Below are positions 8,800 to 17,572 of a stretch of 64,000 nt of DNA, piece by piece. A program made the position numbers and the translations under genes. The stretch's first letter is position 1. Each line of letters begins with the position of its first letter. Source of the DNA: an uncultured Nitrospiraceae bacterium (lineage in GTDB: Bacteria; Nitrospirota; Thermodesulfovibrionia; Thermodesulfovibrionales; Dissulfurispiraceae). The stretch covers positions 608,001 through 672,000 of the forward strand of contig CAVPIW010000006.1 in the NCBI GenBank assembly GCA_963705105.1. Reading direction: 5' to 3'. A model generated the notes under the pieces. The model searched no databases and had not been told where the DNA came from. It was given only the letters and a program-made list of their open reading frames with translations.

Positions 8800-9063
8800 G
8801 TGAAACTAATGACCGTCAAGGAATTCAGGGATCACGCATCGAAGGCGATGAAAAGCAAAGAACCACTCATTATTCTGCGGCGCGGCGAGGTCGCCGGCAT
8901 TTTCTTCCCGATGCCGTTGGATACCATCCCCTTCGATCTCAGAAAGGATGTATTCGTCAGCCTCACCGATTCCATAAAGAAGAGGCTGAACGACCAGGGA
9001 GTCACTGAGGACGAAATCCTTGATGACTTTGAAATTCTAAGGAAATCTCGCCGTAGACGCTAA
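8800..9063 (+). CDS. Phd/YefM-like antitoxin
   Basis: MTVKEFRDHAS...EPLIILRRG pattern; SD GGAGGTGG; followed by a PIN toxin remnant. Confidence 0.6.
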   Translation: MKLMTVKEFRDHASKAMKSKEPLIILRRGEVAGIFFPMPLDTIPFDLRKDVFVSLTDSIKKRLNDQGVTEDEILDDFEILRKSRRRR

Positions 9064-9094
9064 CCAGATCCTTGCCGCCATCATAGGTGGCCGA
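9029..9094 (+). pseudogene. PIN-domain toxin 5' remnant
   Basis: Reads NLAVDANQILAAIIGGR (PIN N-terminal motif). It has an in-frame stop near the start and is cut off at the junction with the integrase remnant. Confidence 0.55.
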
Positions 9095-9447
9095 CGGAGT
9101 TCCCTGATGAATTCGTCTTCGATATGTTGCCACACGTCTTGTCCGGCCTCATCCTGCGGGATGGGCGCTACTGTTTTCTGTACTCCCGTAAAGTAGCTGA
9201 AAAGGCGGACTGCCTCTTTCGCCTGCTGCACCTGCCGGTCTTCATGGTTCTTTGCCGGATCATGGACATACGCCGCGATGCTGTCCGGGGCGTTATCGTC
9301 AAAATTGCTACGGCTGCGGAATTCGTGGAAGCGGTTCACCCACCGGAGATAGTAAGGTAAGCGCTTTTCAGAAACACCGTGCTTCCTGGCAAGGAAGTCC
9401 TGAAAGTCCTTGAATAACGAATCTTGGTTCTTATGCGTCGAGAGCAT
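9095..9447 (-). pseudogene. Integron-integrase-like tyrosine recombinase, N-terminal remnant (catalytic domain deleted)
   Basis: FQDFL...EKRLPYYLRWVNRF...QVQQAKEAVRLF...WQHIEDEFIRELR resembles integrase N-terminal SAM-like domains. It is divergent from an attI-like site and attC-bounded cassettes. Confidence 0.7.
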
Positions 9448-9526
9448 AATATCCCTTTTCGGTGATATAAGACAGCTACTTTTAGCCCCAAAACGTCGCC
9501 AAAACCCGTCTTTCTGACCTGTCTGA

Positions 9527-9555
9527 TTGACTCGCCCCCTTTTTTCCGCTATGAT
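9527..9555 (+). promoter_or_regulatory. Cassette promoter (Pc-like)
   Basis: TTGACT-17 nt-TATGAT pointing into the cassette array. Confidence 0.7.
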
Positions 9556-9569
9556 GTGATCAAATGCAG

Positions 9570-9595
9570 TCGACAGCTAAAGAATAATGTTCGCT
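9570..9595 (+). other. attI-like recombination site (core GTTCGCT at 9589-9595)
   Basis: The core is the exact reverse complement of the inverse core AGCGAAC of the attC at 12362. Confidence 0.65.
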
Positions 9596-10353
9596 TTGGA
9601 ATGATGAGAGATGGGACACGCAATCGACTTTGATAGCCTAAAGGAGGTCTCGTATCTCGGCATAAGGAGGGCTGCGGCATTCCTCGGCCTCGGCCTAAAT
9701 GCAGCAAGACGAGAGGATTTTACCGACTATCAGCTCACTAAGGACGCTACTTTTAGGGTCCTCCCGGCTGATCTGCCCCCAGAGAAGGTGGCAGACATCA
9801 AAGATGCATTCGGTAAATGGGTTATCGCATGCGGCTTGCGGGAGCTCACGGAGACGTTTGCTGTCTATTTGGACGGTATCTACCGGGCTTGCATGCTTAT
9901 GGCGGTCACGAAGCCGCTGGTTCTCCCAGTTGACGCCACAAAGAGTATACGAAAGTTCCTTAGGCTTGGCCTTGCTGAGAAGCTTATTGAACTCCGGAGC
10001 CGCTTTGGTGTCGCCACTCCGAAGGAGGCTTACCTCGGCAGCATTAATCGGGCGCGAAACTGTATTACCCACCGCCGAGGAATCGTTGGCCACGAGGACC
10101 TCACAGAAGGAGACATGCTTCGCCTGAAATGGTGGGCTGTTGATCTATTCGTTCAGACGCCATCGGGTGAACGCATATCGCTGAAGCCTCCGCTTCCGGG
10201 ACAAGGAATCCTGCTGAAGGACGGGGGAAGCGTAATGCTCGGCGTGGTTGATAGGGAGCGGGAGTTTTCTCGAGGGACTGTCCTGGAGATGACCGCGAAT
10301 GACCTTATGGAGGTCTGTATGGTCGTTCAGTTCGCGACTGACGAAATCCTTGG

Positions 10354-16245: not shown

Positions 16246-16419
16246 AGTGAAGGGCGCCCCAGAGACGAGAGAGAGGAAGACGGCCAAGAGACAAGATCTG
16301 TCGACGCCAGGACATCCACAGACGGAACGCATAGCTGGCCAACGGGAGGGACGTGATCCAGCCCCCCCACAACACCCACCATGCGCAAAGAGAGCAAAAG
16401 GGACAACCCCCTATATAGA

Positions 16420-16585
16420 CCGATCCTGCCTGGAGAGTATACAAGCGAGAAGGAGGAAATCCACAGGCTCACGGAGATGATGAACGAACCATGGAGGATG
16501 TCGTACGCAGATACCCGGAGCAGTATCTCTGGATGCACAACCGGTGGAAGACTTACGAGAAAAGACGGGCGAGACCGGCAGGCGC
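16420..16585 (+). repeat. Diverged duplicate of the acyltransferase 3' end (7545-7712)
   Basis: Encodes PILPGEYTSEKEEIHRLTEMMN...EDVVRRYPEQYLWMHNRWKTY, with mostly synonymous differences and one indel. Confidence 0.9.
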
Positions 16586-16706
16586 ATCATCGTTGGAAAT
16601 AAAGTGTGATAGGAGCATGATATGTGTTTGGATTGTATTAAGGGATAATAATGTTGAGAAAGGTGACGAGTTGTTCTGAAGACATAATCTTGAGTAGAAA
16701 AGCTAT

Positions 16707-16777
16707 AAAAAAAAAAAAAAAAAAAAAAAAAAAAAAAAAAAAAAAAAAAAAAAAAAAAAAAAAAAAAAAAAAAAAAA
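16707..16777. repeat. 71-nt poly-A run (probable sequencing or assembly artefact)
   Basis: Uninterrupted A homopolymer inside a frameshift-rich region. Confidence 0.8.
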
Positions 16778-16864
16778 TATTATGAGTGCCGGTAAATATG
16801 TGTCCGGCAATGGTAGAAAGGAAGGGTTAAGAGATGTTGTGGTATCTTGTAAATAATGGGAGTG

Positions 16865-17360
16865 ATGAATGTGAAGCCAAAGGCAAGACAACATGCGGTG
16901 AGGAAGAACGGTAAAAATTATCCGGGCGATGCTGGCTACGAAAATCGGTCGCTGACCGATATTTACACGGAACTGACAGACGAATATATAGCAGGCACAA
17001 GGAAACCATGGAACTGCTCCAAATTCCCGGATTTCTGGAAGAGTGCAAGGAGGGTCTCAAGGAAATAAAGGCTGGCAGGGGGAAGAAACTGAGTGCTTTG
17101 GCAAGTTAGACTTCCTCAACGGCTGAGAAGTATTATGACAGCCTGACGAAGCAAATAAGGCACCGTGTAAGAAAAGGACTACGGAGTTATCTGGTATGGA
17201 AAATCCGATGGAACATCAGTCAGTGAAGCGCCTGACAGGCGACCTTCAGGGATTTTACCGACTCAGGGTCGGCAAGTACCGCATCGTTTTCGCCATAGTC
17301 GGGGAAACCCGGACAATTGCAGTGGTGAACATTGCGCCACGCGGTGATATATATAAGTAG
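16865..17360 (+). pseudogene. RelBE-like TA pair (antitoxin then RelE toxin), frameshifted
   Basis: Toxin C-terminus VKRLTGDLQGFYRLRVGKYRIVF...NIAPRGDIYK* ends at 17360. Upstream antitoxin-like fragments read ETMELLQIPGFLEECKEGLKEIKAG. Confidence 0.7.
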
Positions 17361-17484
17361 TATTCTCAGGGGCCATGGGATAGAGAATTTGGACAGATTG
17401 AACAAAATATACGGAAAGGCAAACTGAGTGCTTTGCTCCTGTATGCCTGCTAGTATGACAAAAGACAAATTAGAAATGACGGCG

Positions 17485-17572
17485 GCATAACAACGCCTGA
17501 AGCCCGGACGCGGAATAAACCCGGCACGTTTTTTATTTTTCCTGATTGTACGCGCGGTTGAGGCTGTTACGA
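17485..17572 (+). other. Possible degenerate attC site
   Basis: GCATAAC-AACGCCTGAAGCC ... GGTTGAGGCT-GTTACGA imperfect pairing after the TA pair. Confidence 0.35.

Follow-up and report, generated by a model that had tools for sequence, protein, structure and literature searches.

This report concerns a decayed integron in an uncultured Nitrospiraceae bacterium (assembly GCA_963705105.1, contig CAVPIW010000006.1). It lies within a stretch of 64,000 nucleotides, positions 608,001 to 672,000 of the contig; the whole stretch is referred to below as the window, and coordinates without a contig label are those of the window. Homologues of IspG indicate a host from the Nitrospirota, to whose placement a PDB search with a neighboring nitrilase added nothing. 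A 5' fragment of the gene (intI) for an integron integrase occupies 9091..9447 on the minus strand, with its ATG at 9447; it retains 117-118 of about 426 codons, i.e., the first SAM-like domain only. On the plus strand follow a predicted cassette promoter, Pc (9527..9555, TTGACT-17-TATGAT), the integron attachment site attI (9556..9591, crossover G|TT at 9589/9590), and a first cassette (9590..12411) that ends in its recombination site attC (12362..12417). The initial annotation, made from the sequence alone, had described the fragment and the promoter, both of which are present, and had proposed that the integron is decayed but its Pc, attI and attC array can still be read. This proposal is supported by the homology to integron integrases (IntI), by the Pc-attI region of an intact relative and by attC models.

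The integrase fragment of 117 codons matches the Pfam family Phage_int_SAM_4 with E 1.7e-5, which is under the cut-off. Six of the 232 candidate longer proteins align with it across its whole length at 57-69% identity. Two of these relatives, both of 426 aa (68% and 57% identical to the fragment), are IntI proteins by TIGR02249 (424 and 427 bits against the cut-off of 265). In the tree, the remnant of the window and a remnant on contig C7 cluster with the full-length IntI P0002 and L053 with support 99, distant from the intact IntI of this genome. Identity to full-length IntI and the tree place the fragment in the IntI family as opposed to other tyrosine recombinases. The initial annotation had left room for a non-integron recombinase; however, its nearest relatives among full-length proteins belong to the integron integrases. 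The gene lacks about 309 of 426 codons (about 73%), including the entire catalytic domain; thus, the truncation was correctly described, and the assumed loss of a half is an underestimate. TIGR02249 has no match at the window locus, which thus lacks the intact IntI of a complete chromosomal integron.

The truncated gene adjoins the remnant of a PIN toxin gene (9029..9090, plus strand), which has kept about 20 codons, interrupted in frame by a stop at 9038, and follows the antitoxin gene of the pair (8800..9063, plus strand). Homologues of this antitoxin are 67-72% identical and are followed by PIN-like open reading frames of 143-155 aa, two of which were scanned and proved to be PIN_2 proteins. 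The DNA likeness to the PIN homologues stops at 9090, where the likeness to another intI remnant starts; the deletion junction (9086..9093) contains the microhomology GGTG. A head-to-head fusion had been placed at about 9095. The fusion is real, the junction lies at 9086-9093, and the two genes are convergent, so that their truncated 3' ends are joined to each other. In a near-identical strain (run X1, one contig; its independence from the source of the window is uncertain) 8748 is joined to 9202, without the antitoxin gene, the PIN stub and 110 further bases of intI.

The Pc pattern alone is at the chance level (one found against 0.8 in shuffles); it is retained in 21 of the 25 strongest copies in the genome, described below, and in the intact relative. 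The latter, a genome of the same family (G004), carries an intact cognate intI with the same Pc and attI. The same layout also occurs upstream of several intact relatives among the 20 displayed: TTGAC and a -10 box, separated by a spacer, are followed after about 30 bases by an A-rich run and G|TT. The position of attI beside the 5' end of intI, with the crossover at G|TT, is based on the upstream region in G004, on the divergence after GTT and on the pairing with the first cassette. As the initial annotation had pointed out, GTTCGCT (9589-9595) is the exact complement of AGCGAAC (12362-12368), which is the inverse core in the attC of cassette 1. On its bottom strand, the segment 12362-12417 forms an attC hairpin (z -3.1, equalled by 1 of 200 shuffles).

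Two attC covariance models were built without the window sequence; their E-values are rough. The model R1 is based on 15 sites (13 from the arrays of the intact integrons of this genome and two from C15, a contig that has cassettes in common with one of these arrays), and the model R2 on 72 attC matches in 32 loci. Over 30 kb, R1 ranks the three sites named here (12362, 15602 and 17485) as the top three, all on the bottom strand, with scores by rank of 16.7, 15.1 and 14.5 bits. Over the 64 kb, R2 gives 23.5 bits (E 0.0012) for 15602, 16.5 bits (E 0.065) for 12362 and 16.2 bits (E 0.078) for 17485, all on the bottom strand; these scores are modest, and the next best match in the window reaches 10.2 bits (E 2.3). 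Thus, the site at 12362, on which the initial annotation had made its reading depend, does score with attC models, if modestly, and the top three model matches in 64 kb are same-strand attC sites downstream of attI, as in an integron. Rfam has no family in the window at gathering scores. A simple pattern scan for attC is too noisy by itself (13 matches against 5 in the control).

Of the two weaker attC-like sites that had been proposed, the one at 17485 stands, and the other was found again by the model with its start at 15602 instead of 15597; both are in error-rich sequence. The site 15602..15663 (plus strand) has a fold z of -3.5 and no spacer after the inverse core. The last site, 17485..17572 (plus strand), is weak, and its folding is not above shuffles (z +1.2). 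There is no pairing between the bases after the attC at 12362 and the site at 15602, or between those after 15602 and the site at 17485; therefore, further attC sites have been lost or are unreadable.

The locus may qualify as a CALIN (attC sites clustered in the absence of any integron-integrase): the three attC matches are 3.2 and 1.8 kb apart, although with modest scores and two of them inside error-rich sequence; no intact integrase is nearby, both intact intI of the genome being on other contigs. The locus does not resemble a single attC site lacking an integron-integrase (SALIN) at an attG, i.e., at a GWT site unrelated to attI, since cassette 1 sits behind a conserved Pc-attI and an intI remnant. 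Taken alone, the window locus is an ordinary decayed integron, which works like a chromosomal integron and falls short of one only in the intact integrase.

The head of this integron recurs across the genome. An iterated profile of the Pc-attI core finds 28 copies, hereafter platforms, on 9 contigs with E<=1e-3 (the best E in the reversed genome is 6.8); a few weak ones span the promoter alone and may be ordinary promoters. The 25 strongest copies have a median identity of 66%, and 16 of them keep the GTT core, counted as the nearest GTT within a small window. The copies and the intact integrons are alike through GTT and diverge directly after it. Outside the two intact arrays and C15, 9 of 14 attC matches of R1 have the right strand and follow a copy at a distance of no more than 9 kb downstream, with 0.37 expected. 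In nine copies the four variable bases after the core were compared with the inverse core of the first attC, and 32 of 36 pair; the permutation mean is 17.2, and none of 100000 permutations is as high. This test left out one tandem duplicate, one copy with its first attC beyond another platform and one copy with an ISL3 element in attI; the register was set by eye for two copies with an altered core. From this pairing between the bases after GTT and the inverse core, we conclude that the cassettes were joined at G|TT. In the excluded copy with ISL3, the bases behind the insertion sequence (IS) pair 4/4. The element in this copy (C12:300487, L012:4488) is inserted exactly within attI, and the duplication of the AT-rich end of this attI has rebuilt the core behind the element. 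Several first cassettes behind platforms are toxin-antitoxin modules.

The intI remnants at the platforms comprise 148, 118, 73, 42, 41 and about 31 codons, while further copies have a short stub or no remnant at all; the longest, on C7, extends to about codon 148-152. All of them are 5' pieces, and their end points differ between the copies, except in one pair. The tree of 25 copies (82 columns) is mostly unresolved. In copies on C9, C19 and C13, other repeats are inserted between the intI stub and Pc.

A search of the genome for an intact intI, as the initial annotation advised, yields two, on contigs C12 and C5. Both exceed the cut-off of TIGR02249, are 47-48% identical to the full-length cognate type, and have upstream regions with a different attI and no match with the platform profile; they belong to another lineage. 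No intact cognate intI was found: the search with the full-length P0002 recovers only 5' pieces of its own clade in the assembly.

In our view, the window locus is a chromosomal integron in which the 3' three quarters of intI are gone, whereas attI, the predicted Pc and the cassette array persist. The 28 related copies, of which it is one, probably descend from a single integron lineage, each of them probably eroded individually from the integrase end. According to this explanation, copies of one integron lineage would have settled at many sites of the genome and captured cassettes at G|TT; intI would then have been eroded from its far end, while the promoter end stayed. The graded series of remnants is observed, and selection for Pc is our presumption: the predicted Pc presumably still transcribes the first cassette, which would be the reason why the promoter end outlasts intI. 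New insertions are presumably rare now because the assembly contains no intact cognate integrase. The two intact integrases of another lineage probably still excise cassettes by attC x attC recombination. The relevant parts of PMC2095811 and PMC8946536 describe attI as recombined only or mainly by its own integrase and attC sites as promiscuous; hence, the resident IntI can be expected to excise cassettes and not readily reload the attI of the window. IS1634 and ISL3 elements would by now fill the arrays. The initial annotation had called the integron frozen, its cassettes to be shuffled only by an integrase supplied in trans. The frozen state is broadly supported; the proviso is that the resident IntI are of another lineage and serve another attI. 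Most likely, the platforms are eroded integron copies retained as promoters and seldom reloaded.

Several observations weigh against this explanation. A first same-strand attC match can be assigned for only 11 of the 28 copies, and therefore many copies may now be plain promoters. A cognate intI could be absent from the assembly, which is 99.4% complete in 19 contigs. The same 85-bp left module and short stub occur in five copies, and two other copies end within one base of each other, which is a hint of spread after the loss of the integrase. Finally, the first cassette at the solo site C9:103348, an ecotin cassette, shares 578 of 583 bases with one of the cassettes in the intact array on C12, and the likeness spans exactly the cassette, starting at GTT and stopping where attC ends; therefore, at least one solo site was loaded recently. 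The platform at C9:103348 is itself only 79-87% similar to four sibling copies. A single recent cassette among the 28 copies is compatible with a cognate enzyme that was lost not long ago, with a copy of it that is hidden or visiting, or with cross-recognition.

As to the multiplication of the platforms, the five copies with the shared module form no clade, and the junctions are unlike integrase cuts. It is possible, though doubtful, that the platforms spread after the integrase had been lost, as small non-autonomous units, e.g., as circles that were excised between attC and a secondary site within intI and then integrated at another place. This proposal concerns the origin of the platforms and may apply to a subset of them alongside the explanation we prefer. 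It is in line with the shared module and ends, with the fact that every remnant is a 5' piece and with two cases of close copies: the platform and its Phd-ParE cassette at C9:37308 and C9:38836 are tandemly duplicated with 99.5% identity over 1157 bases, and a further pair on C12 is 94% identical. However, descent of the five module-bearing copies as one clade from a single ancestor that had lost the integrase is marginally rejected (p-AU 0.042, 170 columns). Spread through integrase cuts at secondary sites fares no better, since GWT fits only one of 10 defined left junctions (13 copies were tried, and three gave spurious matches only). Besides, attI inserts into genome sites at no notable rate, according to the pertinent part of 10.1101/2022.09.11.507474.

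The left module is not a diverged intI: its DNA matches neither the remnants nor any of 55 IntI loci, and at the protein level nothing matches except the stub. The 85-bp repeat occurs in nine copies (C12:306377, 300229, 79861 and 245961; C7:355653 and 214548; C13:8370; C14:269364; C10:160755); five of the nine adjoin solo platforms, two are upstream of other tyrosine recombinase genes, and three are behind DUF433-like toxin-antitoxin genes (labelled by eye). A link between platforms and tRNA genes was also rejected: a tRNA gene is within 1 kb at only 2 of 32 sites.

Another proposal is that the intact IntI of C12 and C5 load cassettes into the solo attI, so that two enzymes of another lineage serve many expression sites. 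The shared ecotin cassette favors it, as do the GTT core kept in 16 of 25 copies despite their median identity of 66% and the fact that both enzymes pass TIGR02249. We consider such a live network quite improbable in view of the distance of both enzymes from the cognate type, the lack of a platform-profile match upstream of them, and the inefficient cross-recognition of attI reported in PMC2095811 and PMC8946536, as far as their sections on this point go. Moreover, among the 28 downstream regions a single match to an intact array spans GTT to the end of attC, the rest looking like matches of IS or repeats, and no such match was seen in another genome, G065, where part of the array was compared. 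It seems to us improbable that two dozen solo Pc-attI pads form a genome-wide network that persists after the loss of its own integrase and receives cassettes from integrases of another lineage, contrary to the cognate requirement of attI; if true, many of the sites classified as CALINs or single cassettes would in fact be functional expression sites that have gone unnoticed.

There is only a slim chance that the solo sites are still reloaded occasionally by a cognate integrase, whether its gene is missing from the assembly, resides in sister strains or is brought in by mobile DNA. The recent cassette copy at a solo site agrees with this, the same-family genome G004 has the intact cognate type, and G065 retains a cognate intI beside 11 solo copies; against it, an assembly of the completeness given above shows no 3' piece of the cognate clade. 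It is very unlikely that the local picture is in part an assembly product, with the PIN junction or the distal array being a chimera of sister strains: no X1 contig spans the junction at 9091 (X1 joins 8748 to 9202) and the distal array is error-rich, with a sister allele of a gene 9 kb upstream, but intI is also cut at this locus in X1, no differences appear where X1 overlaps parts of cassette 1 and the right flank, the surroundings of the junction read cleanly against homologues, and 28 diverged copies in different neighborhoods are left unexplained.

Platforms were also found in other genomes. When the attI of the respective genome was used for the search, there were 12 copies in G065 (11 solo and one adjoining an intact cognate intI), three in Ca. 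Brocadia pituitae, one in G062 and two or three in G063; G064 and G066 were probed with the sequence of G065 only. In five solo copies from three other genomes, 17 of 20 bases pair with the first attC. A platform model, R3, has 33 matches in the genome under study and at most six weak ones in 60 relatives, and at E<=1e-4 it matches one of 150 class-wide genomes; R3 was built from this genome, and its counts are therefore no measure of rarity. In G065 (L138:5400-5580), a palindrome between the intI start and Pc repeats a motif of the attI of that genome and may be an integrase or repressor site.

Decayed integrons are already known; the new part is a graded, genome-wide family of platforms without an enzyme of their own. 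Cury et al. 2016 (PMC4889954), in the part devoted to CALINs, name integrase loss as one origin of CALINs and report an intI pseudogene near 15 of 279 of them. Those CALINs resemble the window locus in having an attC cluster without a functional adjacent integrase, IS in the array and possible mobilization in trans; they differ in that the window locus keeps an identifiable Pc and attI and its platform recurs 28 times. According to the same part, the pseudogene search used the C-terminal domain, and it would miss 5' remnants such as the one in the window. The same source and, likewise, the corresponding section on IntegronFinder 2 (PMC9024848) state that attI cannot be searched for in most integrons.

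Broken intI are common in Xanthomonas, where, by the relevant part of 10.1101/2025.06.18.660453, deletions also break the integrase, arrays are frozen and CALINs occur at other loci. Unlike the case considered here, there is one ancestral locus beside ilvD, and that part reports no repeated attI-Pc heads on other arrays. The isolated cassettes of the SALIN/attG type (Loot et al., 10.1101/2022.09.11.507474) are likewise scattered over the chromosome; there, as far as the corresponding sections go, they occupy GWT sites unrelated to attI, whereas here the cassettes have conserved Pc-attI heads of their own. Integrase loss is described for Treponema in a passage of PMC3607928. The pertinent parts of 10.1101/2022.02.06.479319 and PMC10127599 contain no description of repeated solo attI heads. 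We are unaware of literature on dispersed families of solo attI-Pc; the search left most subscription journals and supplements aside.

These observations bear on the question of where integrase-less cassette clusters come from, which is still open and for which later work leaned to insertion at random sites. The graded series from about 150 codons to none ties solo arrays to whole integrons, and current searches look for neither 5' remnants nor attI sites. In addition, about 25 variants of one attI, the cognate integrase of a relative and two resident non-cognate ones make up a natural test set for attI specificity. At the orphan attC clusters C7:294k, C6:958k and C12:62k, no platform of the window family was found within 2.5 kb upstream.

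Both intact arrays have at their head a near-identical 120-bp element with long inverted repeats (C12:170024-170124 and C5:226240-226340). The arrays of C5 (225121-225220) and C15 (887-987, and from 2871 on) contain it again, accompanied by about 150 more bases that end in an attC-like arm, and it resembles a gene-less cassette or an unusual attI. Contig C15 (1-9000) carries an attC array sharing cassettes with the intact array of C5 and is perhaps a strain variant. At C12:157149-157170, a cassette of the intact array has a collapsed attC, of which just the inverse core and the next GTT are left.

The gene of cassette 1 in the window (9590..12411, plus strand) starts at 9611. Without the IS, it encodes 278 aa, is broken near codon 248 and stops within its own attC; its relatives have 261-311 aa and no known domain. 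The protein has no match in Pfam, NCBIfam or PADLOC, and its assignment to a HEPN family in Atlas, at 0.85, gives no more than a hint. The interrupting element (10354..12304, plus strand) belongs to the IS1634 family (NF033559, 389 bits), with the 5-bp duplication CTTGG and four 99% copies elsewhere. Cassette 2 begins at 12412 (12412..14660, plus strand), and its end is unreadable; its reading frame from 12450 has a hydrophobic N-terminus and is broken by a second IS1634-family element (12495..14420, plus strand; NF033559, 305 bits; 6-bp duplication GTTAGT; a 99% copy on C8). Elements of the IS1634 family have terminal inverted repeats and produce a target duplication of 5-6 bp; both elements of the window exceed the NF033559 cut-off, and their duplications are 5 and 6 bp.

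The stretch 14421..17370 (no strand assigned) contains further cassettes, and its base-level detail is unreliable. Its purine bias is matched by just 4 of 1501 genome windows, its genes are frameshifted, and at 16707 it contains a run of 71 A, the sole A-run of at least 25 in the genome. Comparison with run X1 shows inserted bases at 16484 and 16929; the lack of X1 cover at 14.4-17.4 kb by itself proves nothing. Since the stretch is error-rich, decay of the distal attC sites and sequencing error are indistinguishable in it. At 16420..16585 (plus strand) there is a sister-allele copy, 89% identical, of the 3' end of an acyltransferase gene (7545-7711), the original being about 9 kb upstream; all seven of the seven substitutions in its first 138 bases are synonymous, and it fits the allele of X1. 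It is either a strain chimera in the assembly or a recombination scar. A frameshifted RelE/ParE toxin gene (PF05016), with a likely antitoxin gene before it (labelled by eye, no Pfam match), occupies 16856..17360 on the plus strand.

Upstream of the platform, a toxin-antitoxin pair (8046..8697, plus strand) encodes a RelE-like protein of the Gp49/DUF891 type and a helix-turn-helix (HTH) protein (PF05973 and PF01381) and has an 86% copy at C6:498332. Behind it, a possible left arm of a decayed attC was noted by eye (8673..8712, plus strand); it is weak, with no fold signal (z -0.3) and no match with either attC model. At 18167-18378 of the window, a palindromic intergenic repeat is accompanied by a short simple repeat, with dozens of copies genome-wide.

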